IMG/VR virus record: IMGVR_UViG_3300042731_005566
Length of the DNA stretch: 64,000 nucleotides
Source: an uncultured virus (IMG/VR IMGVR_UViG_3300042731_005566)
Lineage: Duplodnaviria > Heunggongvirae > Uroviricota > Caudoviricetes
Reading direction: 5' to 3' (one strand)
Below, in pieces: positions 1-62,698 of this stretch. The translations under genes and the position numbers were made by a program. Every line of letters starts with the position of its first letter. Positions within the stretch are counted from its first letter, which is position 1. The notes under the pieces are model-generated. The model did not search any database. It was given only the letters and a program-made list of their open reading frames with translations, and was not told the DNA's origin.

Positions 1-1
1 T

Positions 2-199
2 GAAGTTGCGGGGTCTGCGGCAGCAGCGCTCAAGGCTGTACAGTCGATCGTTCAGTCCATTCAGGACACCTACGATGGCAAGCTCACATTCGATCAGGTA
101 CGTACAGAGTTCGCGGAGCTACTAGCCAACCTCGAAACCAACGACGCTGCCGCAGACGAGGCACTGCGCCAAAGGTTCGACACAGACAAGGAGAACTAG
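2..199 (+). CDS. 3' end of hypothetical protein (runs off window start)
   Basis: Open frame from position 2 (EVAGSAAAALKAVQ...DKEN) to TAG at 197-199; contains the AAGGAG RBS of the next gene. Confidence 0.6.
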   Translation, partial: EVAGSAAAALKAVQSIVQSIQDTYDGKLTFDQVRTEFAELLANLETNDAAADEALRQRFDTDKEN

Positions 200-5070: not shown

Positions 5071-5137
5071 TGTCACAGTGACGTGCTAGAGTTCCGGCGC
5101 GAACGTGAAACACAAACGTCGGTCCAGGAAGCGCGTC

Positions 5138-11780: not shown

Positions 11781-13009
11781 CATCAGCGACCAGACAGCTC
11801 ATCCAGCGTGCCCGAGGGCTTTTGTTGGGCCTTGGTTGGCGACACCCATTCTTTGCTCTACCCGGTGCGAAGATCTACCTGCGTGTGTCCATCCACATCC
11901 AGACTGCTTGTGCTGACGTACGTGGATGCGTGTACCTCAATCCGAGTTTCTGCGATCAGCTCTCGGACAAGCAGCTTACCTTCGTTCTGGCGCACGAGAT
12001 CATGCATCTGCTGCTGTTTCACTTTGGGCGGCGAATGAACCGCAAGCCGTTCCGCTGGAATCGTGCCGCGGATCGCGCAATCAACTTCGGTCTCGTGCAA
12101 ATAGGGCTGGAAATGCCGCCCATGGGGTTACTTCCCACCGACCCGGCGCATAACGAGTACACAACAGAAGAACTCTACGAGGTCGAGGAAGAACAGCCAG
12201 GCGATGACGGTCAAGCCTCGCTGGGCAAGATGCCCGGAGCAACCGGTGGTTGTGGCGTGCTTCCACCTCAGGGTGGTGATGGCGATGGTGATGACGATGG
12301 CGCCGAGGGTGAAGCACCAGAAGACGGCGCGGCGTTTCCCTCCACAGCTGAGTCAGCACGGACCTGGCGGCAGCTTGCTCACAGCGCTGAGCAGAACGCG
12401 CGCTCGGCAGGCGACTGCTCTGGAGATCTGCTTGCACGCGTGCTCCGCGTTCCACCATCCAAAGTGGCGTGGACTGCGGTGCTACGCAACGCATGTGCAC
12501 GTGCAATCGCTGAACGCGGCAACGACGACGTTAGTTGGCAGCGACGCAACCGGCGGTCGTTCGCGGGCGACTTCATTCTCCCAGGTGGAATCACGTCCAA
12601 GGCACTCGTCGCTGTGGCGGTAGACACCAGCGGTTCTGTCTCTGACGAAGACCTCGAACAAGCACTCAGCGAGGTGGAAGCAATCAGCCGTGCGACGGGT
12701 GTGGCCATATTTCTGGTCACACACGACGCGGAGGTGCACTTCGCCGACTGGATCCGTCCCGGCACACGACGAGCTGCTCTCGCCAAGACTCTGATCGGTC
12801 GCGGCGGAACGCTATACACGCCTGCGTACGCGGCCATCGAGAGCGCCAGCAAGAAGTTCGACTACGCGATCCATCTGACAGACGGTATGCCGTGTGAGAC
12901 GTGGCCTGAACGGCCGCGCAACTGCCGTAAGCTGACCGTCGCCTTGATCGGTTACGCGAGCAGAAAAGAAATTCCTGAGTTCGCTGATGTCATCGAGATA
13001 GAAATCTGA
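11777..13009 (+). CDS. DUF2201-type metallopeptidase plus VWA domain protein
   Basis: HEIMH zincin motif, WNRAADRAIN, MIDAS DTSGS, GRGGT and TDG; typical partner of phage MoxR ATPases. Confidence 0.85.
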   Translation: MTSATRQLIQRARGLLLGLGWRHPFFALPGAKIYLRVSIHIQTACADVRGCVYLNPSFCDQLSDKQLTFVLAHEIMHLLLFHFGRRMNRKPFRWNRAADRAINFGLVQIGLEMPPMGLLPTDPAHNEYTTEELYEVEEEQPGDDGQASLGKMPGATGGCGVLPPQGGDGDGDDDGAEGEAPEDGAAFPSTAESARTWRQLAHSAEQNARSAGDCSGDLLARVLRVPPSKVAWTAVLRNACARAIAERGNDDVSWQRRNRRSFAGDFILPGGITSKALVAVAVDTSGSVSDEDLEQALSEVEAISRATGVAIFLVTHDAEVHFADWIRPGTRRAALAKTLIGRGGTLYTPAYAAIESASKKFDYAIHLTDGMPCETWPERPRNCRKLTVALIGYASRKEIPEFADVIEIEI

Positions 13010-17274: not shown

Positions 17275-17569
17275 TACACGTGAGAAGGCACGGGTAGCAC
17301 ACGCAGAAGCGCTGGATGCACTTCAGAAGTGGTCTACTGCGAACGAAAAGCGTATGCAGCTAGCAGCTCAAGTAGCGCAAGCGGAGACGTTGAATACCAG
17401 TAACGCGAACATCGCCACGATCTATCAGCAGCTGTGTGATGAGGAGATGTTATGCGCGGGATGGGCTATCGTCGCCATGGCCAAAGCACAGCAGCTAACG
17501 ATGCAAGCCTACGATGAGTTGGCCCCCGAACCGCTTTTGTCAGTCTCGCATGGTACTACCGAGGAATGA
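17267..17569 (+). CDS. Hypothetical helical protein
   Basis: Coupled overlaps with neighbours. Confidence 0.55.
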   Translation: MNDTREKARVAHAEALDALQKWSTANEKRMQLAAQVAQAETLNTSNANIATIYQQLCDEEMLCAGWAIVAMAKAQQLTMQAYDELAPEPLLSVSHGTTEE

Positions 17570-18555
17570 CTGATTCACCAAAGCTGGCTGCGGACTCCGG
17601 TGACGTAGACTCCAACGACCCCGAAGTCGTGCTTGTCGATGGACGTAAACTCACGTTCGAGAACCTGACACCACGTCAGTCTTGGGCAGCTTTGGCACGG
17701 GTTCATCTACAACAAGCCAATTTCCAGCGACGTAACTACGCTGGCTTCGAGCTAGCGGGACTCGACTTACGACACTCAAACTTGGCCGCGTGCGACTTCG
17801 CAGGTGCGAATCTTAGTGCCGTGAATCTAGACAACGCAAATCTCGACAGCGCGCTTTTCGTCAGCGCGAAAATGCAGGCCGCTGAGTTGGGTACGACGAA
17901 TCTCCCTGACACCGACTTCAGCAGCGCGGATCTACGTGGTGCAACATTCATTAACTGCAACGCGTTCGGTGCAATATTCGACAAGGCCAAGCTACGCAAG
18001 GCGAAATTCACGCATAAGTCACGTTTCGCCTTCACGTCGTTTGAGTATGCGGATCTGCGTTACGCGGAGCTGAACGAAGTCGATTTCTCCGGTGCGTGCT
18101 TGGACAACGCAGACCTGAGTCATGCAGTAATCAAGGAAGCAGACTTCACCGGCGCCTCACTGTGTGGCGCCAAGCTGCACCACACAGTACTGGGGAATGC
18201 AATCTTCGCGAATGCAGACCTCTCCAACGTAGACTTCGACTTTCTTTCACGCCTGTCGGTTGGTGCGTACTCCGACTTCACTGGGATGAAACTCAACGGC
18301 GCGCGAAACGTCCCCGAGGATTTTCATCAATGGGGGGTGCTGAACGAGTTGCAGCCGCTACTTCGACGTGTACCCCAGCCGCTACTTCGCACTAGCGAGG
18401 TTGGTCTCGATCACGTAACGACAGGCTTACGCAAGCTGTGGCTCGACCGTGCTGTCAGCGGCGTGGATTTCTTGCTCGAACCCTTAGATGAGCTGATGGA
18501 CGCAGCTTACGCGATAGCGATTGCAATCGCGCCGAAGAATAAATCCAGGTTCTAA
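17566..18555 (+). CDS. Pentapeptide-repeat protein
   Basis: Long run of A(D/N)LxxAxF/L five-residue repeats (e.g. AGANLSAVNLDNANLDSALF). Confidence 0.9.
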   Translation: MTDSPKLAADSGDVDSNDPEVVLVDGRKLTFENLTPRQSWAALARVHLQQANFQRRNYAGFELAGLDLRHSNLAACDFAGANLSAVNLDNANLDSALFVSAKMQAAELGTTNLPDTDFSSADLRGATFINCNAFGAIFDKAKLRKAKFTHKSRFAFTSFEYADLRYAELNEVDFSGACLDNADLSHAVIKEADFTGASLCGAKLHHTVLGNAIFANADLSNVDFDFLSRLSVGAYSDFTGMKLNGARNVPEDFHQWGVLNELQPLLRRVPQPLLRTSEVGLDHVTTGLRKLWLDRAVSGVDFLLEPLDELMDAAYAIAIAIAPKNKSRF

Positions 18556-20336: not shown

Positions 20337-20408
20337 CCGTGTAGAGTGGTATGACCCACAGGCAGGCACTGTGACTGCTTGTGGGCTATGGGAACAAAGG
20401 AGCACAAG

Positions 20409-21278
20409 ATGAGTCATCGAACCTTTGGATTGGTATTGGTAGCGACCTCGGCCTGTGGAACAGTATCAACGAATTATGATGCTGACCCTGTGGATGCACG
20501 ACACGCCGACGCAACGATCGAAGCGGACGCACTTCCCGCCGTGGACAGTTCGCCGGCAGATGCAGACAACATCGACAGCACCGTGGCAGATGCTGCGGAC
20601 CTGACTGCCATGGTGGCTGTTCCCGCAGGCGTTTTCTGGATGGGCTGCAACGTCACCAGCGACCCGTGTGCGGACCCGAACGAGTTGCCTATACACGAGG
20701 TCACACTGGGGGATTTTCTGATCGATGCTACTGAAGTCACCGAGGCCGCGTATGGAGAGTGTGCAGCGGCCAGTGTTTGTGCGATACCGTTGATCTCGGA
20801 TGGGCCAGAGAATCCAGTCCGGGGCGTTACGTGGGCGCAAGCGCAGACATACTGTGAATGGCGCGGTAAACGTTTACCCACAGAAGCAGAGTGGGAGAAG
20901 GCAGCGAGAGGAACAGACGCACGACGCTATCCTTGGGATTCAGGGGCAATCAGCTGTGACTTCGCCAACTACACCTCCTGTCAATCGCCGGTAGATCACG
21001 CTGTCGCTGTCGGTCAGTACCCAGATGGTGTGAGTCCGTACGGCGCGTACGACATGGCGGGGAATGCCGCTGAGTGGGTCCACGATTGGTACTCAGCGAC
21101 CTACTACGAAGAATCCCCGGATGCCGATCCGAAGGGCCCCGTGACCGGTACAGAGCGCGTCGTGCGCGGCGGCTCGGCGACCTCCTCCTCTCCGTATCTA
21201 CGGACTGCGGCACGCACGTCACGTGAGCCCGGCGTAGCCAGCAACGACGTCGGATTTCGTTGCGCGAAGGATGACTGA
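20409..21278 (+). CDS. Lipoprotein-like FGE-sulfatase (SUMF1/EgtB/PvdO) domain protein
   Basis: Signal-like LVLVATSAC, Asp/Ala-rich linker, FWMGC, TEVT, GKRLPTEAEWEKAARG, YPW, DMAGNAAEWVHDWY, RVVRGG and GFRCA. Confidence 0.9.
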   Translation: MSHRTFGLVLVATSACGTVSTNYDADPVDARHADATIEADALPAVDSSPADADNIDSTVADAADLTAMVAVPAGVFWMGCNVTSDPCADPNELPIHEVTLGDFLIDATEVTEAAYGECAAASVCAIPLISDGPENPVRGVTWAQAQTYCEWRGKRLPTEAEWEKAARGTDARRYPWDSGAISCDFANYTSCQSPVDHAVAVGQYPDGVSPYGAYDMAGNAAEWVHDWYSATYYEESPDADPKGPVTGTERVVRGGSATSSSPYLRTAARTSREPGVASNDVGFRCAKDD

Positions 21279-37471: not shown

Positions 37472-37530
37472 CTAAGTACTTGATAATATTAAGATATTAT
37501 AGGTAAATTTGCCAGTTGACGATAATACCG
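37472..37530. other. AT-rich putative recombinase core/binding site
   Basis: TAAGTACTTGATAATATTAAGATATTATAGGTAAATTT, very AT-rich against the GC background; ATAAT-8 nt-ATTAT dyad directly upstream of the recombinase. Confidence 0.4.
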
Positions 37531-37553
37531 GTTGTCGGGCAAGCTCTCAGATC

Positions 37554-38612
37554 ATGTCCGAGGGAACCGACCTGATCCCGCGCCCACCCTGGCAAATTAG
37601 GCCCTCAGACGCTGCTCTGAGCCCCGATCTGCAAGACCGCCTAGAGGAGGCACTCCTGGCGTTCCGGCGCACCCTGGACTCCCCAGAGAGCGTACGCGGC
37701 TACCGTGACGACTGGCGCCGCTGGGTGGCTTGGCTCTCCGCCGAAGGGGTCCATCCACTGCACGCGCTGCCCCTGCACGTTCTGCGCTATCTCGTGAGCA
37801 TGCAGGACGCTGGCAGGGCGAAGACGACGCGCTCACGCGCACTGGCCGTGATCCGTTCGACCTACGCCGCGCTGGTAGTTGCGTTCTCGGAGGTGCCTGG
37901 GGTGCTAGACGCAAACCCCGCGCGCGAGGTCCGAAACATCAAAGTGGATCACGAGCCGAAGACGCCCTGGCTCGCAGAAGACGAAATGCGCCGTCTCCTA
38001 ATACGGCCGCCGTCAACCGCGCCGTGGGTAGAACGTCGCGATTGGGTTATCTGCGCCACGCTAGCAGGTACGGGTTGGCGTCGAGCGGAGATCGCACGCC
38101 TTCGTCGTGATGCGCTCCTCGACACCCCTGGTGGCTTCGCTGCGCAAGTGCACGCGAAAGGTGGCAAGGATGCCATCGTGCCACTTCCAGTTTGGTTGTC
38201 GCACGAGCTGGCGGAATGGTGCCAAGCCAATCGTATCGACGCAGGGCCAATATTCCCGCGACGCGAAGGCGCCGACGTGGCCGTTGGCCCCACGACAGTC
38301 AGGAACGCCGTGAAGCGATCAGCGGAACGCGCAGGGCTCGACCTGACACGCGCAACACCTCATGCGATTCGGCGTTCGTTCGCGACGATTACAGGTCAGC
38401 GTGGCGTCTCAATCGAAGATCGTCAGGCGGCGATGCTACATGCCTCAAAGGCGACAACAGAGCGCTACGACAAAGCGAGCAAACTGCCAGCACAAGCACC
38501 CGGCGAAGTGCTTCGCGATCTTGTCGAGCCATCGAATGGCGAAGCAAACGCCGCCGCATCAAATGACACGCAGCCAAAAACTTGGCCGCCGCGTCGAGCT
38601 GATTACGAGTGA
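37554..38612 (+). CDS. Tyrosine recombinase/integrase (XerC/D-like)
   Basis: N-terminal SAM-like domain; catalytic R (TGWRRAEI), K (AKGGK), HxxR (TPHAIRRSFAT), H and Y (MLHASKATTERYD). Confidence 0.9.
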   Translation: MSEGTDLIPRPPWQIRPSDAALSPDLQDRLEEALLAFRRTLDSPESVRGYRDDWRRWVAWLSAEGVHPLHALPLHVLRYLVSMQDAGRAKTTRSRALAVIRSTYAALVVAFSEVPGVLDANPAREVRNIKVDHEPKTPWLAEDEMRRLLIRPPSTAPWVERRDWVICATLAGTGWRRAEIARLRRDALLDTPGGFAAQVHAKGGKDAIVPLPVWLSHELAEWCQANRIDAGPIFPRREGADVAVGPTTVRNAVKRSAERAGLDLTRATPHAIRRSFATITGQRGVSIEDRQAAMLHASKATTERYDKASKLPAQAPGEVLRDLVEPSNGEANAAASNDTQPKTWPPRRADYE

Positions 38613-51979: not shown

Positions 51980-53302
51980 ATGAGGATCGAGACCACTATC
52001 GAGGAGCCGTACGTCGATCATTGGGGCGCCATCGAAGGCATCCGCGAGATCGTCCAGAACGGCAAAGACGCCGAGACCGAATTCGGCGCCAAGCTCGTTG
52101 TGCGTTGGAGAAACAACGTGCTGCGCGTCGAGAACAACGGCGCTACGCTCGACAAGAGCGCTATCCTGATGGGCCGCACCTCGAAGCGCAGCCGCGCCGA
52201 TATGATCGGCAAGTGGGGCGAGGGCCTGCCTGTCGGCTGCCTCGCGCTCGTCCGTGCAGGCTACGAGGTCCGCATCCGCACCGGCGCTGAGGTCTGGATT
52301 CCGCGCGTCGAGGAGTCGAACAAGTTCGATGGCGCCCGCGTACTGGTTTTCGAGATCCTCAAACGCAAGCACCGCGACCGTGTGTGCGTCGAGATCCGCG
52401 GCGTGGACAAAGCGGAGTGGGCGACCATCCGCTCGCGTTTCCTCTTCCTGGCCCGGCCGAGGCCAAACGAGATCATCGAGACGGACTACGGCGACCTGTT
52501 GCTCGCTTCACGCTATCGCGGCGATCTGTTCATCAAGGGCATCTTCGTCCAGCACGACGATACGTTGACTCACGGCTACAACTATCGCAACGCGGACTAT
52601 GACCGCGACCGGCGCATGGTGGAAGATTTCGATAAGCGGAGCAACAACCGCCACATCTGGGAAGAGGCTGTTGCGCGCCGCCCGGACCTATTCCGTACCT
52701 ACTACGATCTTCTTACCGCAGGCGCACGCGACCTCGATGGCGTAACTCAGTACAGCGTCCCGTATATGCAGGACGCTGCCCTCGACGGCGTTGCCGAGGC
52801 GTTCATCGCGCAACACGGCGAGAAAGCCGTCCCCTGCGAAAACCTTGGCGAGTGTCAGGACCTGGAACATCTCGGTCGAATGGGCGTCATCGCGCCCGAA
52901 TCACTGCGCGCAATCGTCGCGCACAAGATCGGATCCGTGGAGACGGTGAAGGCTGCGCTGGCAAAAGAGGTCGTCAGGAAATACTCGTGGCATGAGCTGG
53001 ACGCCACTGAGCGCGCGCACCTGACCGCTGCCATCGAGTTGGTAGCAGCCGCAACTGAGTGCGCCCTCGCGGATGTGGACGTCGTGGACTTCCGCTCTGA
53101 GACCCTGCAAGGTCAATACAAGGACGGTCGCTTCGCTATCGCAAAGCGGGACCTCGCAGACCGTGATCTGACGCTCGAAATCCTCGTGCATGAGGTCGCC
53201 CACCGTGCTGGCAGTGACGGCGAGAAATCACACGTGGCGACCATCGAGAACATCTGGTCCAAGATCGTCGCAGCGCTCCGCAACCAACTGCCGAAGCCAT
53301 GA
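51980..53302 (+). CDS. GHKL (HATPase_c-like) ATP-binding protein with C-terminal HExxH
   Basis: IREIVQNGKD N-box, ENNG, MGRTSK, IGKWGEGL G-box; ILVHEVAH; GGAGG RBS. Confidence 0.75.
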   Translation: MRIETTIEEPYVDHWGAIEGIREIVQNGKDAETEFGAKLVVRWRNNVLRVENNGATLDKSAILMGRTSKRSRADMIGKWGEGLPVGCLALVRAGYEVRIRTGAEVWIPRVEESNKFDGARVLVFEILKRKHRDRVCVEIRGVDKAEWATIRSRFLFLARPRPNEIIETDYGDLLLASRYRGDLFIKGIFVQHDDTLTHGYNYRNADYDRDRRMVEDFDKRSNNRHIWEEAVARRPDLFRTYYDLLTAGARDLDGVTQYSVPYMQDAALDGVAEAFIAQHGEKAVPCENLGECQDLEHLGRMGVIAPESLRAIVAHKIGSVETVKAALAKEVVRKYSWHELDATERAHLTAAIELVAAATECALADVDVVDFRSETLQGQYKDGRFAIAKRDLADRDLTLEILVHEVAHRAGSDGEKSHVATIENIWSKIVAALRNQLPKP

Positions 53303-53610
53303 GCCGACCACCGACCACTGCTTACCTTCTCCATGTAGACGAGCACCCGAGTCATTGGGTCGCGTTCGTACCGTTCTGCACGAACCCCAACAATCGCCGG
53401 CAGTGGCTTTGGATGCGCACCGAGGCTTGCGCGCTGCTCGTTGCGTGCCCGAATTGTGGATCTACGCCAGGCATGTTGTGTCGCAGCGCTCGGGGATCTC
53501 CCTGGGGCTCAACACACAGCGCCCACCGCGACGCTTTCCGTAAGATGGTCAAGGACGACATCACGACCGTGCGAGCGTTGGCCTTCAAATTCAAGGTGGA
53601 AGGCGTCTGA
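53299..53610 (+). CDS. Phage zinc-finger protein
   Basis: ALLVACPNCGSTPGMLC...THSAHR. Confidence 0.6.
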   Translation: MSRPPTTAYLLHVDEHPSHWVAFVPFCTNPNNRRQWLWMRTEACALLVACPNCGSTPGMLCRSARGSPWGSTHSAHRDAFRKMVKDDITTVRALAFKFKVEGV

Positions 53611-53619
53611 GAACCCATG

Positions 53620-53649
53620 TTGGCATCTGTCACACGCGCCTGCTATAGT
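53620..53649 (+). promoter_or_regulatory. Sigma70-like promoter with extended -10
   Basis: TTGGCA-18 nt-TATAGT with TG at the extended -10 position; first obvious promoter upstream of the block that ends in the cas12-like gene. Confidence 0.5.
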
Positions 53650-53705
53650 AGGCGTCCACTCGGGCCGGAGGCCACAGAAACTACCAGCTCGACGAGGCAA
53701 AATCT

Positions 53706-54362
53706 ATGCGCTACAAACGAGGCGAGAGCGAAGAACCAGGGCTGCGTGAACGACGCGTATCGAGGACGACAGGAACGACCGTTTCGATCTACGACGCCGA
53801 CGAGCTGGATGCCCAACAACTAGCCCGCTGGAGGGGACAAGCACCCAAACACCGCTGGATCGTCTGCTGCGAAGATCACTGCACCGTAGGCAGCGTCCCA
53901 ACGCTTGCCGAGGCGCGCGCATTGCTATCCAGCTGCGGTTGGTGCTACGACTGTCGGCTCACCATGTTCGGCGCTGAGCTGCCTTGTGATGCTTGTGGCC
54001 GTCCCGTAGTGTGGTGCACGGAAGACGACATCACGCTCTGTGACGTCTACGATGTACACGATACGGCGTTGCTCGACGACGACGACGCACTGGTTGGCCT
54101 GCGTGTCGGTCACGCAATCTACTGCGATATGTGTGCTCCGCTGGCAATCCATGACCGGTGCCAAAACTGTGCGCGCGGCCCCGAGGCAATCACTCCGCAA
54201 GGTCCCGTACCGGTCCCGGTCCTGACAACGAGGTCTGAGCTTCCTGCGCTGTCCGCAGCAGGCCCCATCGAAGTGATAGACCTCGTACAAGCGCCAGTGC
54301 AGCCCGGAAGCTGGGCTGCGGTACTCCGTGCGGGGCTACAACATCGCAGAGGACGCAACTGA
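53706..54362 (+). CDS. Cys-rich hypothetical protein
   Basis: Multiple CxxC motifs. Confidence 0.55.
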   Translation: MRYKRGESEEPGLRERRVSRTTGTTVSIYDADELDAQQLARWRGQAPKHRWIVCCEDHCTVGSVPTLAEARALLSSCGWCYDCRLTMFGAELPCDACGRPVVWCTEDDITLCDVYDVHDTALLDDDDALVGLRVGHAIYCDMCAPLAIHDRCQNCARGPEAITPQGPVPVPVLTTRSELPALSAAGPIEVIDLVQAPVQPGSWAAVLRAGLQHRRGRN

Positions 54363-54405
54363 ACTGATTTCGATGGATAGCGAAGGCTCCGAGGAGCAGC
54401 GCATT

Positions 54406-54675
54406 ATGAACAACAACAAGCTGAGACCAACTGTCGAGGACGCTCACGCCGCTTCCAGGTGGGGATTTGCTAACACATTCACTGCTCGCTCGGTCGCCTT
54501 AGCGGTAGCGCAACGGCTCGGCCCCGATGACCGTGAAGGCGCTTGGTGGTACGCAAAGGTTCGGGTGTGTGCGCGAAATGCCCTTGAAGAGTGGCTACGT
54601 GAAAAAGTAATCGAGGCGGCCCCCCGATCAGGACAACCGACCGAATATCGATTCGTGAAGAAGGAGAGAACATGA
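54406..54675 (+). CDS. Small winged-helix-like hypothetical protein
   Basis: GAGGAG RBS within the hairpin variant. Confidence 0.5.
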   Translation: MNNNKLRPTVEDAHAASRWGFANTFTARSVALAVAQRLGPDDREGAWWYAKVRVCARNALEEWLREKVIEAAPRSGQPTEYRFVKKERT

Positions 54676-55496
54676 GGGCAATCGTATTGGCTGAGATCAA
54701 CAGTGACGGCACGCAAGGTGAGGTGCACACCTGCCGCGGCAGTGTGATCAAGATTGGAAAAATGAAACGCTCGGGGTTGAAGCTCAACCATCCTTCAGTC
54801 AGTCGGATGCACGCGGTGTTCGAGTGCGAGCCTGGAGGCATTGTCCACCTAGTCGATCTGGGTAGCGTGCAAGGTACGTTCATCAACGAGAAGCAGATCA
54901 ACAAAGCAGCCGTCAAAGTCGGCGACACGGTTCGTTTTGGTGACGTGATGCTCGCGGTTCGTGAGATTACGGACGAGGATGACACAGATGAAGCTGAAGC
55001 TGAAGCTGAAGCTGAAGCTGAAGCTGAAGCTGAAGCTGAAGCTGGTACCGCAGATGCAGCCTCTACAGGGCTCAGCGATCTCGCGGCCCGTATTGATCGG
55101 CTCAAACGTATCCGCAACATATACAGTGCAGGAGCTGCGCAGAGCAGCGCCGAGGTACCGAGCATAGGAAAGCTGGCCAGTACTGCCATCGTCCACAGCG
55201 TACTCGACGCCAACGCGCCAAAACAAATCGCTGACGTGATCAACGATGTCTGTGACAACGTTGCCGAGCTGCGCAAAATCGCGTCCGCTGACCGTGTTAC
55301 GCAAGCGCTGGACGGTCTCATCCAAGACTGGGCGCCTGTGTTGCAGGTCATCGGTAAGTACAGGGAGGCGAACGTCGAACGTACTGCGTTGTTCCGTGCC
55401 GGCTTGATCAAGAAGCTCAAGGACGAATTCGATCTGAGCGAGGCCAACGCAGTGGAGATCGTTCAATCAGCGTCGGAAACGTCCAACCTGACTTGA
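54672..55496 (+). CDS. FHA domain protein
   Basis: IKIGK...HPSVSRMHA...LVDLGSVQGTFIN...VGDTVRFG; (EA)9 linker. Confidence 0.85.
   Translation: MRAIVLAEINSDGTQGEVHTCRGSVIKIGKMKRSGLKLNHPSVSRMHAVFECEPGGIVHLVDLGSVQGTFINEKQINKAAVKVGDTVRFGDVMLAVREITDEDDTDEAEAEAEAEAEAEAEAEAGTADAASTGLSDLAARIDRLKRIRNIYSAGAAQSSAEVPSIGKLASTAIVHSVLDANAPKQIADVINDVCDNVAELRKIASADRVTQALDGLIQDWAPVLQVIGKYREANVERTALFRAGLIKKLKDEFDLSEANAVEIVQSASETSNLT
54990..55043 (+). repeat. (GAAGCT)9 microsatellite
   Basis: Nine perfect hexamer units, in frame. Confidence 0.95.
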
Positions 55497-55541
55497 GGAG
55501 AGATAGCGAAGACGCTATCGATGAGGAGGAGGAAAACGCTG

Positions 55542-55850
55542 ATGACAGATGATCCCGCACACGAATACACGGTTCCTGGCGGTGCTGCGGCAGCCCTCTC
55601 GACAATGCGCCCTGAGATGGCCCGTATCGTGGCCACACAGCTTCGTGAGGGCATCCTGCAACCGCTGTCGCCAGAAGAGCAAGCTGGCCTTCTCGACCTG
55701 GTAGCTGACCTCATTCAGCGTGTCAGCGATGACCAGGATCAACTCCGCGATATTCTACTCACGGTGCGTGGAATCCGCGAATACGGTAAAGGCCTACAAG
55801 GCATGTCGGAGAAGATCATTGCAGCTCTAGCTGCTTGCAACGTTGGTTGA
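55542..55850 (+). CDS. Hypothetical helical protein directly upstream of the cas12-like gene
   Basis: GAGGAGG RBS. Confidence 0.55.
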   Translation: MTDDPAHEYTVPGGAAAALSTMRPEMARIVATQLREGILQPLSPEEQAGLLDLVADLIQRVSDDQDQLRDILLTVRGIREYGKGLQGMSEKIIAALAACNVG

Positions 55851-55884
55851 ATGGGGCTCCGAGGAGCCAAGCAAAGGAGCATGT

Positions 55885-57468
55885 ATGCCAGCACGCGTTT
55901 ACAAGTATGGAGCCCGCCCTAGCCAAGATCCGAACTTGCTCAGGCAGATGAGGCTAGGCCGTCAGTACTACAACGCGCTCGTTGAAGCGGAGAACAAGCG
56001 GCGCCAAATCGGATGGGGCGGCGAATCTCCGCCACCACCACCGCACCGAGGTAGATGTCAGTGCGAGAAGTGCCAAGATGCATGGGCGAAGACGTCGCCT
56101 CCCCACGAGAAGTACGACTGCGACTGCGCTGAGTGCGAAAAGCACCGCGAGGCGCACCCGGCAGAGCACGACAACTGTAAGTGTGCGGCTTGCCGCGCGC
56201 ACTGGAATGCAGTGTGGGCAGCTACCCGTGCTATACCGCTACTCGACGTTCGTCCATTACGAACTACATGGGCGGCGAAAGGACTCTACTGGGGAACCTA
56301 CAACGTGATCGAACAGGCCTTCTCGGCAGCCTGGCAACACACGTCTCTGCTCCGCCCGGTGAAATTCCGGTCGTGGCGCAAAGGAGACGTCGCGGCCGTC
56401 CAAATTCAACCCGGAAGAGATCCTCATCGGTACGTACAGACTCACAAAGCGCCAGACGCACGGACAGGAAGACGTACACGTAACGGACTTGGACGGCACA
56501 CGGTAGAAATTAGGATCGGCAGCAATGGGGCTACACCCATTTTCTGCACCCCGATCCGCATAGAAAAGCACCGCGAGCTGTCTGGACAAATCACACATGT
56601 CCATGTGCGGCGGCGTTACAATGCCGATCAGCAGGTTTGGTCGGTCGCGTTCACTTGCAAGGATGCTGACCCAAGGACGGACGCGGCCGAGGAAGGCGTC
56701 GTTGCGGTAGACGTCAGCTGGCGCAAGATGCCTGACGGCTCCTGGCGATTGGGCTACGCGCGTGATGCGGCCGGTCACGTGAGTGAGCTACGCATGCCAG
56801 TCAGTTGGACGGCACGCGCTGACCGTGCGGAGAAGATCCACTCACACCGTGACAAGCGCCTCAACGAAGTACGGGCGTGCTGGCCTGTAGTCGGTAAGAC
56901 GAAATCCTGCCAAAAGGCTGTACGAAGACTACGTAGTCTAGGAGTACTCACCGCGGATCAAGACGCGTGGGTTGCACGCGAAATGCATCTCTGGCGGTAT
57001 GAGTGCGGTTGCTGGCGGCGTAGCCGAACCGGACGTCGCGCAGCGCTGCGTGAATGGGTGCGTGAGCTACGCTGTCAATACGCGGCTGTCATCGTCAAGA
57101 ATACAGGGCACAAGAAGATCAAGGAGGAACACGGGCTGCCTCAGAAGGCTCAACGGCAAGGACAACATGCGGCACCAGGAGAAACAGTGGAGGTGCTACG
57201 GGAAGTGTTTGGCGCCGATGGAATGCGGATCGTAGAAGCGAAGCACACGAGTGCGCGTTGCCCCGATTGTGGCACAATCACTCCCGTGAACGGACAACGC
57301 ATGCTTCGTTGCGAGGGGTGTGGTACGCAACGAGACTGCGACGACATAAGCACCCGAAACATGTGGGCCCTCTACCAAGCCGGCAAATGGAAAAAACCTA
57401 CCGCTCGAAAAACGACCTCCAGGTTCGCGAAACGGCACAAGAAAAACGAGGTGCCCCCGGAATGCTAG
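55885..57468 (+). CDS. Compact type V CRISPR effector (Cas12m / V-U1-like, TnpB-derived RuvC protein), 527 aa
   Basis: VYKYG...RQMRLGRQYYNALVE N-terminus, GLYWGTYN, RuvC-I VAVDVSWR, AAPGE, TSARCPDCG...CEGCG zinc finger, RuvC-III RDCDDISTRNM; adjacent CRISPR array; AAAGGAG RBS. Confidence 0.8.
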   Translation: MPARVYKYGARPSQDPNLLRQMRLGRQYYNALVEAENKRRQIGWGGESPPPPPHRGRCQCEKCQDAWAKTSPPHEKYDCDCAECEKHREAHPAEHDNCKCAACRAHWNAVWAATRAIPLLDVRPLRTTWAAKGLYWGTYNVIEQAFSAAWQHTSLLRPVKFRSWRKGDVAAVQIQPGRDPHRYVQTHKAPDARTGRRTRNGLGRHTVEIRIGSNGATPIFCTPIRIEKHRELSGQITHVHVRRRYNADQQVWSVAFTCKDADPRTDAAEEGVVAVDVSWRKMPDGSWRLGYARDAAGHVSELRMPVSWTARADRAEKIHSHRDKRLNEVRACWPVVGKTKSCQKAVRRLRSLGVLTADQDAWVAREMHLWRYECGCWRRSRTGRRAALREWVRELRCQYAAVIVKNTGHKKIKEEHGLPQKAQRQGQHAAPGETVEVLREVFGADGMRIVEAKHTSARCPDCGTITPVNGQRMLRCEGCGTQRDCDDISTRNMWALYQAGKWKKPTARKTTSRFAKRHKKNEVPPEC

Positions 57469-57856
57469 CTCGATGGCTACTCAATCGAGACAGTCGGGTG
57501 TGCGTTTCAAACCACTGGCGCAGCCGCCCCGGAATGCCAGCTCGATGACTACTCAATCGAGACAGCTCGCGTGCAATTGCCGCGGCCAAAGCTTTCTGCC
57601 ACCCGAAATGCTAGCTCGATGGCTACTCAATCGAGACGCGTAGCGGAAGCCAGTTCGCTCCTCGGGGTGCTCCCCGGAATGCTAGCTCGATGGCTACTCA
57701 ATCGAGACCGTATCGAGCCGAGCCCGAAGGCGTTCGCGCCCCAGACCCGGAATGCTAGCTCGATGGCTACCCAATCGAGACTACAAAACGGGGCCAGCGG
57801 TGTTTTTCCGTGGCCGGCCCCCCGGAATGCTAGCTCGATGGCTATTCAATCAAGAC
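57456..57856 (+). CRISPR. CRISPR array, regular part: 6 repeats of 36 bp and 5 spacers
   Basis: Consensus CCCGGAATGCTAGCTCGATGGCTACTCAATCGAGAC at 57456, 57528, 57602, 57673, 57746 and 57821; unique spacers of 36, 38, 35, 37 and 39 nt; internal CTCGAT/ATCGAG hairpin. Confidence 0.95.
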
Positions 57857-57888
57857 GCCACGCCAGGATGTAGACACGGAGGACTGAA

Positions 57889-58221
57889 ATGGGAATGAAA
57901 CCGAGACCGAAGAAAAGAACGGATCCACAGGTCCGTGAAACGTTGGTGTCTGCCGCCGACCGATTGATCGAGACTCTGGAAGACCTCCTACAACCATATG
58001 AGCGGGAAAAGGCGGAGGTGGTGATCAATGTGGCTCGGGAGGCTATTTACGAGTTGCAGTACGCCAATCCGAACACCGAGATCGTACTCAAAAGCGTGCT
58101 ACAGGCGTACCTGACGCCGGACGTCGGTATCTACCATTCCGGGTACGAAGCCGCCTTCACGAAGAAGTACGCCAAACTCGAAAAGATCATCAAGAAGGTC
58201 GTCGAGGCGACTGGCATGTAG
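57889..58221 (+). CDS. 110-aa hypothetical protein embedded in the CRISPR array
   Basis: GGAGG RBS; intact ORF with GC3 bias; repeats on both sides. Confidence 0.7.
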   Translation: MGMKPRPKKRTDPQVRETLVSAADRLIETLEDLLQPYEREKAEVVINVAREAIYELQYANPNTEIVLKSVLQAYLTPDVGIYHSGYEAAFTKKYAKLEKIIKKVVEATGM

Positions 58222-58229
58222 CAGCTTGA

Positions 58230-58263
58230 ATGCTTCCTTGTCGGTCAGGGGAGCATCCCTTTT
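58230..58263 (+). terminator. Putative intrinsic terminator after the embedded gene
   Basis: ATGCTTCCTTG-TCGGT-CAGGGGAGCAT stem (with G-U pairs) followed by CCCTTTT. Confidence 0.5.
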
Positions 58264-58823
58264 CAATCGAGACTTGAGCACCAAGGGCGACGACAATCAT
58301 GCTAGCTCGATGGCTATTCAATCGAGACTTGAGCACCAAGGGCGACGACAACCATGCTAGCTCGATGACTATTCAATCGAGACCTCGGCCCCGCAACCAA
58401 CGAAGACCCGGAATGCTAGCTCGATGACTACTCAATCGAGACGTCGGATTTGGGATCGAGGCTACCCAATCGAGACAGCCTAGCTCGTCTTTCGACGCGT
58501 CGAGATCGAACCCAGAATGCTAGCTCGATGGCTACCCAATCGAGACGCGAGCGACAACCTGGCGCGCGGTCTCAAAGTCGCGACCCGGAATGCTAGCTCG
58601 AAGATGATGAATCCGATGCAATTGAATCAGCCATGATCCGTGCTGGACTCATTTGGAAATGTGTCGAGTGCGGCTACAACAACGAACCAGACTACACTGC
58701 GTGCGATAACTGTGACAGAGAACGCGAGGACGGGTGTCCCGGAATGCTAGCTCGATGGCTACCCAATCGAGACGCCGTAGATCAACACCAGGTGGTCCCA
58801 GAATGCTGGCTCGATGGCTAGAC
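58262..58823 (+). CRISPR. CRISPR array, degenerate distal part
   Basis: Half repeat 58262-58273; 5'-truncated repeats 58299-58328 and 58354-58383; full repeats 58407-58442, 58511-58546 and 58738-58773; partial repeats ~58456-58476, 58584-58601 and 58797-58823. Confidence 0.85.
58602..58737 (+). pseudogene. RanBP2-type zinc-finger coding fragment inserted in the array
   Basis: WKCVECGYNNEPDYTACDNC fits W-x-C-x2-C-x3-N-x6-C-x2-C; bounded by a half repeat and a full repeat. Confidence 0.6.
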
Positions 58824-58866
58824 GTGTCCGGGTCCGGCAGAAAACAAGAAAGAGGAGTTTAGTGAC

Positions 58867-59106
58867 GTGGACAGCGACGATCCGATCGTGGTGCGTGTGA
58901 AGAAGGCACGGTGGGAAACACTCGGGCTCGACATGCCTCGGGATACCTACAGTGTCATGGCGATTGAGCTACCGAGCGGTCGCCGCCTTGTAGCTATTGT
59001 TCCTTCTGGCATTGACGAAGCAGACGCCAGGTTTGCTGAACAGGAGCTGCGCAGCCTGGCCGATGTGATCGCTGGATTTTTTGGTCCTGCATCGACGAAT
59101 TCATAG
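58867..59106 (+). CDS. Hypothetical protein
   Basis: GAGGAG RBS after the end of the array. Confidence 0.55.
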   Translation: MDSDDPIVVRVKKARWETLGLDMPRDTYSVMAIELPSGRRLVAIVPSGIDEADARFAEQELRSLADVIAGFFGPASTNS

Positions 59107-59149
59107 CGCGTTTTTTTGGGTACTTCACGATGGTGGTATGGCACGCTAA

Positions 59150-59165
59150 AATCGCGTCCGCGATC
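59150..59165. promoter_or_regulatory. Operator-like palindrome (copy 5, inverted) AATCGCGTCCGCGATC
   Basis: Reverse complement GATCGCGGACGCGATT is 15/16 identical to copies 1 and 2; intergenic, upstream of the HTH gene. Confidence 0.55.
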
Positions 59166-59282
59166 ATCGACGTGAAGCTTGCACGCAGCATCAATTCTAG
59201 GTAAAAACGAGGTAGGACGCGTCCCTGTACTACTGCTCTCAACTCCTCGACGCGTGGGGAGCAAACCGAAAGACGAGAACGA

Positions 59283-59897
59283 ATGCCAGTTCCTCCCGTG
59301 AAGTCCACCGCGGCGTGGCTGTCAGCTCATGATGCTGCAAAGCTGCTCGACGTAACCCCTGACTACATCGCGAAGTTGGGGCGCTCAAAGCGTATCCGCA
59401 GCAAACGGCTCGGGCCGAACCGCAACGCTTACTCCAAAGCTGATGTTGCGAAGTTCGCCGCTCAGCGAAAGCCACGCAAGAAGCCACGCAAGAGGTCACG
59501 CAAGCCTGGATCGAACGGTGCCGCCGGCAAGCCTGGATCGAATGGTGCCATTGACACAGACCGGTGGGTTGACGTGGCTGAAGCTGCGCGGATCACAGGC
59601 CTGACCAAAGGCGGTGTGAACTGGGCTGCTAAGCAGGGGCGCATTCCTACCGTCAACATGGACGGCCACCCGAGGCGTTATCTCTACTCGGCTGACGCCT
59701 GCGAAAACTACAAGCGCACGAACAACGGACCCAAAGCGCAAACGTCGAAGTCAGACCCTGCCACGCGGATGGCACCGAAGCGCGCGCAGACTGCCATCCA
59801 GAAAGCACGCTGGGTGTTCGATGGAATCGCGATGGGTGCTATTACCTCTGAGAGCGAAGCTCTAGAACTTCTTCGCGGCATTCTCTACGAAGACTGA
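59283..59897 (+). CDS. DNA-binding protein with two excisionase/MerR-like HTH domains
   Basis: WLSAHDAAKLLDVTPDYIAKL and WVDVAEAARITGLTKGGVNWAAKQGRIP. Confidence 0.75.
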   Translation: MPVPPVKSTAAWLSAHDAAKLLDVTPDYIAKLGRSKRIRSKRLGPNRNAYSKADVAKFAAQRKPRKKPRKRSRKPGSNGAAGKPGSNGAIDTDRWVDVAEAARITGLTKGGVNWAAKQGRIPTVNMDGHPRRYLYSADACENYKRTNNGPKAQTSKSDPATRMAPKRAQTAIQKARWVFDGIAMGAITSESEALELLRGILYED

Positions 59898-59911
59898 GAA
59901 AGGAGCGTACG

Positions 59912-60481
59912 ATGATCAAACTACGTGGACTGTCCTGGTCTCGTATCGAGAGTGCCTGGCACGGCATGCGAACACGCCGCGATACGGTCGCGTTGGAACG
60001 CGCACTCATTCTACGGCAGCTGCGAGACATGGCGCCGTGGACGGATCGCAAACGGTACGCGTCGCAGGCTGCGTACGACGAGCTGGCTGAGTACAGCTTT
60101 CACGACATACTTCGTCACCGTCTCTACGAGAACCCCAGAGAGGTCCGCAACACGTTGGCTGTGCTGGATACCTTCGGGGAGAAAGCCTTCCGACGCTACG
60201 GCCGCGCGGTGCTCGTCCGCATCCACAATCGCACGAGCAATCAACGCAAGCGGACGCGTGCGCTGCGTGAGCTGGACAAGATCATGCGGAAAGAGGATCG
60301 ACCACCGTGCCCAACGACCGTGTCTCTGGTGCTCAACAAGATCGAGCCCGCCAAACGGCGCCCGAGCCACATCGAGTTGGTTCGCAAACTCAAAGAACGT
60401 ATTCGCGCGTTGGAGACGGAGAACGCGCAGCTCAAGCACAAACTGCGTACAGGACGCGCACGTAAACGCAAGGCGGCCTAG
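59912..60481 (+). CDS. Basic hypothetical protein with coiled-coil tail
   Basis: AAAGGAG RBS. Confidence 0.6.
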   Translation: MIKLRGLSWSRIESAWHGMRTRRDTVALERALILRQLRDMAPWTDRKRYASQAAYDELAEYSFHDILRHRLYENPREVRNTLAVLDTFGEKAFRRYGRAVLVRIHNRTSNQRKRTRALRELDKIMRKEDRPPCPTTVSLVLNKIEPAKRRPSHIELVRKLKERIRALETENAQLKHKLRTGRARKRKAA

Positions 60482-60496
60482 CCAGAAAGTAGTACT

Positions 60497-61039
60497 ATGA
60501 AGAAGCTCATGCAAACACTGGATGCCGAAGTTGATCGTCGCGTCGAGCAGCTGATCGAACGTTTGCGGCCGCAACTCCATCACCTCGTACGCACCGAAGT
60601 CGTCAACGCTCTCGCCTACACGGTCAAAGTAGATGCCGGGCCGATCACGCCGAAGCAAGCTCAGAAGATAGTCACTGACGTCAATGCCACAGCAGCCATC
60701 ACTTCGATACGAGGCATCGTAGAGACACCAAACGGTTGGGCGTGTGTTCACTGCGGCACGACATTCAAGACCCAGCGAGCTGCTTCTATTCACGCACGTG
60801 CGTGCAAGCCCGAAGAGAAGCAGAAACCGCAAGGCTCACGTCGTGGCCCGCGCCGGGGCCCGCGTCGTTGCATCAAGCCAGGATGCAACGCACAAAGCAA
60901 GGGACCTCGTTTTCACCACCTCTGCGCAAAACACATCAACGCACCGAAGAAGCAGTGGCAAGCGTGGCAGAAGCAGGCACGGAAGCAGCCGCGAAAGAAA
61001 ACACGTGCCGCGGCGACCACTGGACGGATAGAGGGATGA
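60497..61039 (+). CDS. Zinc-finger protein (C2HC plus CxxxGC...CxxH)
   Basis: CVHCGTTFKTQRAASIHARAC; CIKPGCNAQSKGPRFHHLCAKH. Confidence 0.65.
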   Translation: MKKLMQTLDAEVDRRVEQLIERLRPQLHHLVRTEVVNALAYTVKVDAGPITPKQAQKIVTDVNATAAITSIRGIVETPNGWACVHCGTTFKTQRAASIHARACKPEEKQKPQGSRRGPRRGPRRCIKPGCNAQSKGPRFHHLCAKHINAPKKQWQAWQKQARKQPRKKTRAAATTGRIEG

Positions 61040-61440
61040 CGATGCCCGAAAGCTTCACTGACCCCATGGTCTACACAGAGGAATGGGCCGTCTGCGGGCG
61101 CCTCGATCAGCCTGTGACCGACTACATGAAGGACCCTAACAACCCCTGGAAGTGGAATCGTGGGCTCCTGGTTCGAGCGGGCGGCGTTGGAAGGCTTTGG
61201 CTCAGGGCGATCCCAGATCCACAGGGACGCCTCGACGGGTCAACTCCTCCAGAGGTCTCAGCCCACACCCGAGCGAAGCTTGCCGCCGCAGCTCCCTGCA
61301 TGTTCCGCCTCCTGATGGACATCTACGAGAACCCTGACAAGGACTGGTCCCAGGAGATCACCAACGTTACGCGCCGTGCTCTCGCAGGCCAAGGTTACTA
61401 TTACTACCGTTGGAAGGAGCCCCGTGACCTCACCGAATGA
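61036..61440 (+). CDS. Hypothetical protein
   Basis: ATGA coupling; AKLAAAAP motif of small phage proteins. Confidence 0.55.
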   Translation: MTMPESFTDPMVYTEEWAVCGRLDQPVTDYMKDPNNPWKWNRGLLVRAGGVGRLWLRAIPDPQGRLDGSTPPEVSAHTRAKLAAAAPCMFRLLMDIYENPDKDWSQEITNVTRRALAGQGYYYYRWKEPRDLTE

Positions 61441-61840
61441 AGACCTGATAGAGCAGATCGCTGAAGTCATCTATCGGCATGCTGGTGGAATCTGCCCTGA
61501 AGAGTTCGAGAACGTCTTCGGCAAGCCGCAGCGACACTGGAAGACCGACGCCCCTCGGGACACTCGCGATGACGAACTGCAAGAGCATGAACGCGATGAG
61601 TATCGGCTCCAGGCCCGCAAGGTTGTTGAGACCGTCGCCTCCTACCTCTTACTCGATGGCAAAGACAAGCTCATGGTGACGTTGCGAACGAAGGCCGAGC
61701 GCGACCGCTACCGCAAGCATGTCGCCAAATTGCGCGGAATGCTCTACCAGTGGTTACTGGTGCCCGAGGATCGTGATGCGCAACTGGAGCAAGAAACAAG
61801 CGCGTTGCTGGCTGAAACTGCCGACAAGGAGGCGCCGTGA
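61376..61840 (+). CDS. Hypothetical protein
   Basis: ORF; true start probably downstream, near the AAGGAG at ~61414. Confidence 0.5.
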   Translation: MLSQAKVTITTVGRSPVTSPNEDLIEQIAEVIYRHAGGICPEEFENVFGKPQRHWKTDAPRDTRDDELQEHERDEYRLQARKVVETVASYLLLDGKDKLMVTLRTKAERDRYRKHVAKLRGMLYQWLLVPEDRDAQLEQETSALLAETADKEAP

Positions 61841-62698
61841 GCGCGATGAGGCAAGAACACGAAGTACGGCAACTGCGCAAACAGCTCGATACCTACAGAA
61901 AACAGCACAATGTGTGACGCTCCGCTCTGCAACCGGCCCGCGCTCAAGTGGGATCTCTGCACTGCACATCTCGTGCTGTTCTGCCATCTCCTCGACCGCC
62001 GAATCGAAATCCCAGAATTTGACCGGCTCATGTCGTTGCCTACTGAAACCATGCTACAGGAACTCAACCGGCGTTTTCAGGTGCCCCAGTAAAAGACCCG
62101 ACCGTCATTACCACTCCAGATGGTTTCAGATTCGCGCGATGAATAGGCACTGGTGCTGCATTTGCGGAGCGGGATTCGAGACGGCGGGCGGACTGCGGCG
62201 CCATCTTCGGAACGTTCACTCCGAGGATACGGTAACCGATCACTCCTTTCGAGCGATTCGCTATTCGCACAACGGGCAACTACGAACAGGGAATTGCGCG
62301 ATCTGCTATCGGCCCGCGCAATTGCACATGCGAGGTGAGCATGGAGACAGTTGAGTGCGCACGATGCCATGGTCGGATCGTGGTGAACAAAGAACTATAC
62401 TGGGCGGACGTCCCGAGCGTCGGCGTGCTTTGCAATGCGTGCCACGAACGATGGCTAGAAGGTGAGCTAGCGGAAACAACCGATCCAGCTGAGGTGAAGA
62501 ACGATGGCTGATCCCGAATTCAAAGACATGACAGGAGAGCCACGTTCGGACGCAGAGCTGCAAGAAGCGGTCGAACGGCATCTGGTTCGCAGCATGAACA
62601 AGCTGATTGATGGAAGTGCCCGATTTGTTCATGGCGCTCACGACGATTCACGATGCGTTGCAAGAGCTGCTCGCGATTCGCGGTGAGGGAATGAAAGG

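Follow-up and report, generated by a model that had tools for sequence, protein, structure and literature searches.

A probable type V-M (Cas12m) CRISPR locus with a compact effector on a phage-like genome of about 147 kb

The IMG/VR virus record IMGVR_UViG_3300042731_005566 (146,941 bp; G000 in the coordinates below) carries, within a stretch of 64,000 nucleotides (nt) that we call the window (the reverse complement of G000:C1:82813-146812), a gene for a small RuvC-type protein that runs directly into an array of short palindromic repeats, clustered and regularly interspaced (CRISPR). We read this, with good confidence, as a type V-M Cas12m locus on a phage-like genome of about 147 kb, with a single effector, no adaptation genes and no trans-activating CRISPR RNA (tracrRNA); that it is a real Cas12m-type locus is highly likely. 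An earlier note on the window, made from its letters and open reading frames (ORFs), had called the effector Cas12m-like, and that identification stands, on profile matches at E 1.7e-37 to 2.7e-13, the top Foldseek ranks, conserved arrays and a covarying fold of the CRISPR RNA (crRNA). The principal features are as follows (window coordinates; protein lengths and residues in amino acids, aa).

cas12m gene, 55885..57468, plus strand: 527 aa from the ATG at 55885, the form in the public protein collection
cas12m ORF, extended, 55843..57468, plus strand: 541 aa from an in-frame upstream TTG
RuvC residues of the Cas12m protein: D276, E433 and D486 (D484 likewise invariant)
TNB zinc ribbon of the Cas12m protein: C459/C462/C476/C479
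Cys/His motif of the Cas12m protein: C98-x-C100-x2-C103-x2-H106, plus two CxCxxC copies at 58-63 and 79-84
Regular CRISPR array, 57456..57856, plus strand: six 36-nt repeats and five spacers
Repeats 1-6, plus strand: 57456-57491, 57528-57563, 57602-57637, 57673-57708, 57746-57781 and 57821-57856

The effector and its family

The 527-aa RuvC/zinc-finger protein of the earlier note is ORF 55885-57468, and both its D-E-D triad and its zinc ribbon were confirmed. A word-index search brought in 22 relatives, all metagenomic, of 471-531 aa and 36-76% identity; together with the 527-aa protein they make up the family alignment and profile used here (A1; 23 sequences, 492 positions). D276, E433, D484/D486 and the four zinc-ribbon cysteines (CCCC) are invariant in 23 of 23 sequences, and the D-E-D and zinc-ribbon positions align with the D, E, D and zinc ribbon of the Cas12m structure 23vw.

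Against the PDB, the profile gave its best value with 23vw (577 aa), E 1.7e-37, in a match spanning positions 7-466 of its 492; Cas12m2 (8hio/8hhl) followed at E 2e-21, 8pm4 at E 9e-15 and 23vu at E 3e-13 (2.7e-13). Structures of TnpB were reached at E 5.6e-4 on the C-terminal third only, those of Cas12f at E 0.03-0.09 on the zinc ribbon only, and CasPhi 7odf at E 0.015 over 59 C-terminal profile positions. The single sequence as query returned weak zinc-ribbon matches only, so that Cas12m is reached by the family profile alone. Pfam likewise detected only a Cas12f1-like TNB domain (E 7e-6), NCBIfam gave no match to the effector, and PHROGs labels its C-terminus 'transposase' (E 3.6e-6).

Structure prediction, a check that the earlier note had proposed, points to the same family. 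An AlphaFold2 model built on the family alignment (mean predicted local distance difference test score 81.9) has as its four top Foldseek matches 8hhl, 8hio and 8hhm (Cas12m2) and 8pm4 (GoCas12m), at E 1.8e-20 to 4e-17 and template-modelling scores of 0.54-0.56; TnpB follows behind Cas12m at E 2e-12, and CasPhi and Cas-lambda occupy ranks 35-49. The motifs GLYWGTY, xDxxWR and AAPGE, which the earlier note named as Cas12m motifs, sit at Cas12m-aligned positions. Because of the profile homology over nearly full length and the best fold match, we assign the protein, by profile and model, to the Cas12m family (type V-M) as an effector of the D-E-D clade with its own array.

Unlike the characterised Cas12m, the protein is 50-70 residues shorter, and relative to 23vw it is chiefly the REC lobe that is reduced: a short Cys/His motif, PPPPH...CxCxxCxxHW, stands in the subfamily at the place of the long helical insertion of 23vw (the REC coiled coil). 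Within this motif C100 and C103 are invariant in the subfamily, and C98, H54 and H106 nearly so; the two additional CxCxxC copies of the 527-aa protein sit in a poorly modelled region. A small additional metal site in the CxCxxCxxH region is a reasonable guess. The triad reads D-E-D here versus H-D-D in Cas12m2 and N-D-D in PmCas12m, and fits the described Cas12m clades (HEK/HQK, HDD, DED/NED, DED/DND/NED).

The compact group stands apart in larger collections too. Run against 1.84 billion entries, the profile returned 1,383 cluster representatives at E <= 1e-30, among which some 13 clusters with full-length members of 470-530 aa (E <= 1e-142) are separate from the bulk of 550-650 aa. Two subfamily-specific peptide patterns, which are uninformative on distant Cas12m, found no close relatives among 185,579 species genomes. 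The effector is present as a single copy in its own genome.

The array, its repeat RNA and the junction with the gene

The six 36-bp repeats with unique spacers of 35-39 nt that the earlier note had listed were found again at 57456-57856. The repeat consensus is CCCGGAATGCTAGCTCGATGGCTACTCAATCGAGAC, from which the six regular copies differ by 0-2 mismatches, and the five spacers measure 36, 38, 35, 37 and 39 nt and are all different. Repeat 6 has a G-to-A change in the 3' stem strand, and the other five regular repeats keep every stem pair.

Periodic repeats follow the effector gene in 16 of 17 related IMG/VR loci, the exception being a sequence that ends 324 nt past the match, and in 52 of 78 loci overall (viral and metagenome), many of the remainder being short contigs. 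One 36-nt representative from each of 31 distinct arrays was aligned (alignment A2), with same-contig duplicates and unplaceable arrays dropped. In a 6-bp helix near the 3' end of the repeat, 94.6% of the cells are paired and each of the six pairs shows compensatory changes; a second helix, 76% paired, closes a pseudoknot. Covariation scored 0.685, compared with 0.204 in shuffles (none of 500 reached the observed value) and 0.09-0.17 with slid partners, the slid controls being somewhat flattered since the structure was derived from the same 31 sequences. As judged from these alignments, the layout matches the pseudoknot of the Cas12m2 crRNA as given in the cited part of Omura et al. (PMC10442227): a helix of -22..-17 (about -23..-18) with -8..-3, closed by a G/A pair (G-23, A-2), and AC as the last two bases ahead of the guide.

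A covariance model (R1), built from repeats of the relatives, was run over the whole genome. With E-values of 7e-5 to 0.025 it found 11 copies at the locus plus a single one elsewhere, and the next matches have E >= 0.4; the six regular repeats score E 7e-5 to 8e-3 against this model, into which other loci went as well. A chance origin of the repeats is excluded.

The twelfth copy is solitary. It lies at G000:C1:16513-16548 (minus strand, one mismatch), outside the window and 72 kb downstream in window orientation, on the same strand as the array. It follows a 110-aa ORF and covers, in antisense, the 14 final codons of a 147-aa ORF with an RF-1/GGQ domain (PCRF and RF-1). In three of the four metagenome runs described below there are contigs with its flanks as loose ends, and because of their presence there we take the copy to be real; no second repeat was found near it, and what follows it matches nothing significantly in the genome.

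The gene and the array are physically joined. The earlier note spoke of an effector 'fused' to its array, and this proved literally true, through an overlap that it did not mention: the TAG stop of cas12m (57466-57468) lies within repeat 1, so that gene and array share 13 nt. We examined the distance between stop and repeat in 25 loci, three of which were not measurable (L046 for its shortness, L014 for want of an array frame, and L022 since its match and its ORF end at different points). The stop codon falls inside repeat 1 in all eight close-subfamily loci (37-100% identity; overlaps of 4-28 nt) and in none of the 14 measurable distant relatives, which have gaps of 9-205 nt. The variable C-terminal tails of the homologues (PPEC, DNASPAA, ECQRSGL and others) are the repeat translated in different frames. 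With the start of repeat 1 inside the gene, no space is left for a leader belonging to the array. PmCas12m is described as cutting after repeat nt 2-3, leaving a crRNA of about 33 nt of repeat and about 17 nt of guide (preprint 10.64898/2026.03.26.714355, as far as its cited part goes); in the eight loci the stop lies downstream of the position of such a cut, except in one (4-nt overlap), where the cut would fall within the stop.

The earlier note had recognised no cas1, cas2, cas4, cas6 or tnpA in the window; Pfam models of Cas1, Cas2, Cas4 and Y1 TnpA found no match in the whole 146,941-bp record, which extends that statement for these four, and cas6 was not searched for. Adaptation genes are typically lacking at V-U1/V-M loci, according to the cited part of PMC11013384. 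No anti-repeat (tracrRNA) was found in 52,000-62,000, where the longest complement is 9 nt, and a consensus scan of the locus for promoters and terminators did no better than shuffles.

Beyond the regular array the degenerate tail that the earlier note had seen was confirmed at 58259-58820, along with an intervening ORF that it did not mention.

110-aa ORF, 57889..58221, plus strand: between the regular array and the eroded tail
Hairpin followed by TTTT, 58228..58263, plus strand: possible terminator of the 110-aa ORF, from a fold of 58221-58274 only
Eroded array tail, 58259..58820, plus strand: five repeats, full or 5'-truncated, plus four fragments; intervals of 17-35 nt
Tail repeat copies, plus strand: 58293, 58348, 58407, 58511 and 58738, two of them without the first six bases
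Tail repeat fragments, plus strand: 58259-74, 58460-76, 58582-602 and 58797-820
Tandem spacer-repeat unit of 55 nt, 58262..58383, plus strand: 2.2 copies
62-aa ORF, 58633..58821, plus strand: N-terminal part resembling a zinc ribbon (RanBP-type, E 6e-6, just under the Pfam cut-off)

The 110-aa ORF has no Pfam or PHROG family and no homologue in related loci, and its atlas scores are all below 0.9; the hairpin after it was not listed by the consensus terminator scan. The C-terminal half of the 62-aa ORF is encoded by two repeats, and this ORF may be either a real mini-gene with a repeat-derived tail or spurious.

Two related contigs are of note here: (i) in the metagenome contig L040 (2,863 bp) the end of the array, at 2351-2863, is eroded too, its intervals being 6-24 nt long and some short units duplicated, so that erosion of the distal array recurs in the subfamily; (ii) L077, a metagenome contig of 2,273 bp, carries an N-terminal effector fragment (55% identity to residues 8-60) and repeat-like matches on both strands at about 935-1106 and 1536-1559, possibly a rearranged or broken locus.

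Thirteen wetland-metagenome runs, none of them RNA, each contain at least a quarter of the sampled words of the locus. Contigs of four runs are identical to the window over 55500-59300, bar one in which a copy of the 55-nt unit is missing (58261 is joined to 58317).

Guides, targets and competing readings

We propose that cas12m and the array would be co-transcribed, read-through from the cas12m promoter adding the array to the 3' end of the cas12m transcript. By analogy with studied members of the family, the effector would cleave each repeat of the precursor close to its 5' end and retain a crRNA with a pseudoknotted repeat handle of about 30 nt and about 17-20 nt of guide; next, it would bind guide-matched double-stranded DNA (dsDNA) adjoining a T-rich protospacer adjacent motif (PAM), probably TTN, and block transcription or replication without cutting. 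The likely use would be to exclude or silence related rival phages. Binding without dsDNA cleavage is, by the same analogy, what we would expect of this effector, if with some reserve, and we lean slightly towards rival phages as the main target. Clues to the target come from L040, whose effector is 62% identical in protein and 62% in DNA throughout the gene, and whose repeat is identical to that of our array at 34 of 36 positions.

Spacer 2 of the array, 57564..57601, plus strand: recurs in the L040 array (effector 62% identical)
Protospacer-bearing ORF, G000:C1:67977-69278, minus strand: 432 aa, with a C-terminal MUG113/T5orf172 domain

In L040 the first spacer matches G000:68863-68898 at 34 of 36 positions (BLAST E 3.4e-8, for one of 258 spacer queries), with mismatches at guide positions 2 and 21 and a TTG immediately 5' of the match. 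Within IMG/VR the core of this protospacer occurs only in the 147-kb phage's own contig. This is direct evidence that arrays of the compact subfamily carry guides against kin phages. The TTG beside the sole protospacer found, a single case and from a kin array, is consistent with the TTN/YTN PAMs of known Cas12m. The earlier note had the system aimed at competing mobile elements or host genes; the former is indirectly supported, a kin phage's spacer matching the 147-kb phage, and no targets were found for the array's own spacers in the searches given below.

Spacer 2 is shared between the two arrays. Its first 18 nt are identical in L040, a 2-nt indel follows and 34 of 38 positions agree, and the repeat after it is the same variant, CCCGAAATGC, in both arrays. 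The remaining spacers of the two arrays differ, so turnover has occurred. Either the shared guide is under selection, its conserved part being about the 17 nt used by PmCas12m, or array segments recombine between phages.

Several observations weigh against the reading of a non-cutting phage locus directed at rivals. (i) Compared with the whole phage, the array's spacers and post-repeat sequences give chance matches of 12-16 nt only, apart from parts of the repeat. The earlier note's proposed search of the spacers against IMG/VR could be carried through in part: exact scans with the 5' 20-24 nt of spacers 1-4 found the own contig only, and spacer 5 and the tail spacers were not scanned. By exact matching the shared 18-mer of spacer 2 has no target in the phage itself or in IMG/VR, and blastn of the array against 50,697 phage records gave no match. 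(ii) The L040 spacer is mismatched at guide position 2, which could be an escape change, and its match could also reflect self-regulation of a gene shared by both phages, L040 being known only from its 2,863-bp contig. (iii) The T-rich PAM, probably TTN, is deduced from a single protospacer. (iv) The four metagenome runs have the same spacers in their contigs and hence give no sign of ongoing acquisition; the contigs break at repeats. (v) The phage-like status of the carrier is drawn from the IMG/VR and CheckV classification and from replication-type genes. PHROGs recognised no capsid, portal or terminase among 118 different ORFs of G000, and the Pfam models Terminase_6N and Phage_capsid had no match over all of it; of the earlier note's large phage, the IMG/VR record at 94% completeness speaks for the claim and the unrecognised capsid, portal and terminase speak against it. 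(vi) The compact subfamily has an intact RuvC triad, so that cleavage is possible; this is the main doubt.

That last point leads to the alternative of an active nuclease, in which the compact D-E-D subclade would cut its target as Cas12f, CasPhi or TnpB do and rival DNA would be destroyed. The invariance of D276, E433 and D486 in 23 of 23 sequences favours it, since such conservation would be unneeded for binding alone, and Omura et al. raise possible DNA hydrolysis by the D-E-D clades 3 and 4 (cited part of PMC10442227). Three points speak against it: all Cas12m covered in the cited part of Bigelyte et al. (PMC11013384), including four D-E-D variants, bound PAM-flanked dsDNA without cutting and blocked transcription or replication, the four showing neither dsDNA cleavage nor collateral activity; conversion of the Cas12m2 triad to D-E-D did not restore cutting, according to the same part of PMC10442227; and the closest solved relative, 23vw, also D/E/D at the aligned positions, was deposited as 'DNA-binding protein Cas12m'. 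We therefore consider a nuclease possible, though unlikely.

Under a different reading, which we think improbable, some guides are fixed and the non-cutting effector represses a conserved host or phage promoter, as a hard-wired regulator with no part in immunity. Spacer 2, common to a phage whose effector gene is 62% identical in DNA, would fit this, as would the agreement of its 18 identical nt with the guide of about 17 nt of PmCas12m, the identity of the array in contigs of four runs, the lack of matches to the Cas1, Cas2 and Cas4 adaptation models, and the solitary repeat 72 kb away. The missing target of the shared guide in the phage itself and in IMG/VR tells against it, however, as does the turnover of the other spacers, and the shared spacer could stem from recombination between arrays.

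A further reading, joined to the position of the stop codon, we put forward tentatively and with considerable doubt. If repeat 1 is cut as in PmCas12m, the cas12m mRNA would be left without a stop codon; one transcript would then face two conflicting maturations, with built-in negative feedback on the effector level, and the whole might be a partly hard-wired device for silencing between kin phages and not an adaptive immune system. The conservation of an 18-nt guide across phages with effectors 62% identical, together with the solitary antisense repeat over the release-factor-like GGQ gene, is why such a device would fit. The stop-in-repeat layout may also be left over from the arrangement of TnpB, whose ORF end and guide scaffold overlap.

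Could the locus be an inherited relic that no longer works? In the eroded tail repeats are truncated, one unit is duplicated and intervals shrink to as little as 17 nt; the copy number of the 55-nt unit varies; no targets were found for the array's spacers, and there are no adaptation genes. Decay is nevertheless very improbable given an intact ORF with all family-invariant residues, five of six regular repeats with every stem pair kept (one stem change in repeat 6) and all six scoring E 7e-5 to 8e-3, and the same layout in eight of eight close relatives.

The earlier note had also supposed that the locus depends on host adaptation machinery. This found no support: the repeat pattern occurs in none of the 185,579 species genomes and, in IMG/VR, in the own contig only (a scan that missed the solitary copy).

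An ordinary IS200/IS605 TnpB with an omega-RNA, which the earlier note had named as the contrary case, is suggested by the Pfam TNB match, the PHROGs 'transposase' label and the omega-RNA-like overlap of the guide scaffold with the 3' end of the ORF, and is refuted by the profile ranking (the C-terminal third for TnpB, nearly the full length for Cas12m) and that of Foldseek, the multi-spacer array with its repeat covariation, the lack of a Y1 TnpA match and the single genomic copy; its chance is close to nil. Two other candidates were rejected as well: Cas12f (type V-F), for its zinc-ribbon-only profile match and the lack of an anti-repeat, and Cas12j/Cas12l, for the 59-position match to 7odf and the low Foldseek ranks.

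Carrier genome, known relatives and significance

CheckV puts the completeness of G000 at 94%. PHROGs and Pfam scans identified a DNA polymerase, a primase, helicases, a ribonucleotide reductase and DNA methyltransferases, and further several HNH endonucleases, a Sak4-like annealing protein and a tyrosine integrase. The PHROGs scan comprised 36 + 72 + 11 entries (118 different ORFs, one scanned twice), and its single match in a structural category is a weak one, of a 590-aa ORF to a tail fibre (E 0.0032). Several large ORFs (1032, 867 and 808 aa) have no match at all. A second IMG/VR record, IMGVR_UViG_3300035152_000026 (150,001 bp), has the same sequence over the locus, with a length and extent unlike those of G000 (146,941 bp). 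The genes neighbouring cas12m are not conserved in related loci.

Other features of the window concern the carrier. A tyrosine recombinase at 37509-38612 (Phage_integrase, E 8e-16) means that the element may be temperate or integrative. The following accessory genes are atypical of phage.

5105-5968: sulfotransferase
20379-21278: FGE-sulfatase-like enzyme
17566-18555: pentapeptide-repeat protein
10680-13009: AAA ATPase and DUF2201 metallopeptidase/VWA protein

Two genes upstream of cas12m, the ORF at 54672-55496 encodes a 274-aa FHA-domain protein and contains 7.5 copies of the hexamer CTGAAG (55000-55044), which encode an (EA)n run. Just downstream of the CRISPR region, the ORF at 59283-59897 encodes a 204-aa HTH_17/excisionase-like protein, inside which a 23-nt direct repeat with 27-nt spacing (59500-59549) encodes a duplicated peptide.

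Among known systems the locus most resembles type V-M Cas12m (MmCas12m2, 8hhl/8hio/8hhm; GoCas12m, 8pm4; 23vw), with which it shares the single effector, the adjacent array and the lack of tracrRNA and adaptation genes. As in Cas12m2 the repeat has 36 nt, the same pseudoknot layout and a terminal GAC, and as in Cas12m generally the array is read in the direction of the gene with the guide 3' of the repeat. Unlike the characterised Cas12m, it has its stop codon inside repeat 1 and is located on a virus record. With TnpB (IS200/IS605; 8h1j, 8bf8) it shares the RuvC and zinc-ribbon core and a guide-RNA scaffold overlapping the 3' end of the protein gene, whereas TnpB has no array, a single guide, and TnpA with transposon ends. 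CasPhi/Cas12j and Cas-lambda/Cas12l of huge phages are likewise phage-borne single effectors with an array and no adaptation module, but they are nucleases of 700-800 aa with weak C-terminal similarity to the 527-aa protein.

The kind of system is already described, and the novelty that the earlier note implied does not hold. Table S1 of Bigelyte et al. 2024 (PMC11013384), which covers 134 Cas12m, contains Ga0073583_115056259, an IMG/VR entry (taxon 3300005253) of 512 aa beginning MTKVYKYGALPGG, assigned to Cas12m clade c3 and marked CRISPR+. It is our locus L010, of the same compact subfamily, 43% identical and with an array starting at the stop codon; it differs in its repeat sequence and has 21 repeats, and in the cited part of that source it is a table entry only, not characterised. 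The same study also searched IMG/VR, and its Table S2 includes a tested IMG/VR-derived UnCas12m. A landfill virome paper of 2025 has viral effectors clustering with Cas12m/V-U1 (cited part of PMC12607003), and a preprint of September 2026 claims the first phage Cas12m, MvCas12m of myxophage MV-1 (bioRxiv 10.64898/2026.09.14.751636). As described there, MvCas12m resembles our locus in being phage-encoded next to an array, without cas1/cas2/cas4 or tracrRNA, with a D/E/D triad and with no protospacers found; at 610 aa, with D305/E463/D555, its residue spacing misfits the 527-aa protein, so that, judged by this description, it is a different member. A phage Cas12m has thus been claimed in papers of 2025-26, and a member of the subfamily stands in a supplement of 2024. 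What seems to be new is the stop-in-repeat layout in eight of eight loci, the conserved guide and the kin-phage protospacer with TTG, no literature search having been aimed at these three.

Base and epigenome editing call for programmable DNA binders of very small size, for which Cas12m proteins are in demand, and the phage-borne D-E-D subclade, at about 470-530 aa, falls 50-100 residues below the characterised members. That stop codon and repeat 1 overlap in a conserved manner is a candidate for coupling effector dosage to crRNA processing. Because the leading spacer of a relative matches a phage gene beside a TTN motif, use between phages is suggested, and the locus would then be a concrete case for phages using non-cutting CRISPR effectors against each other.

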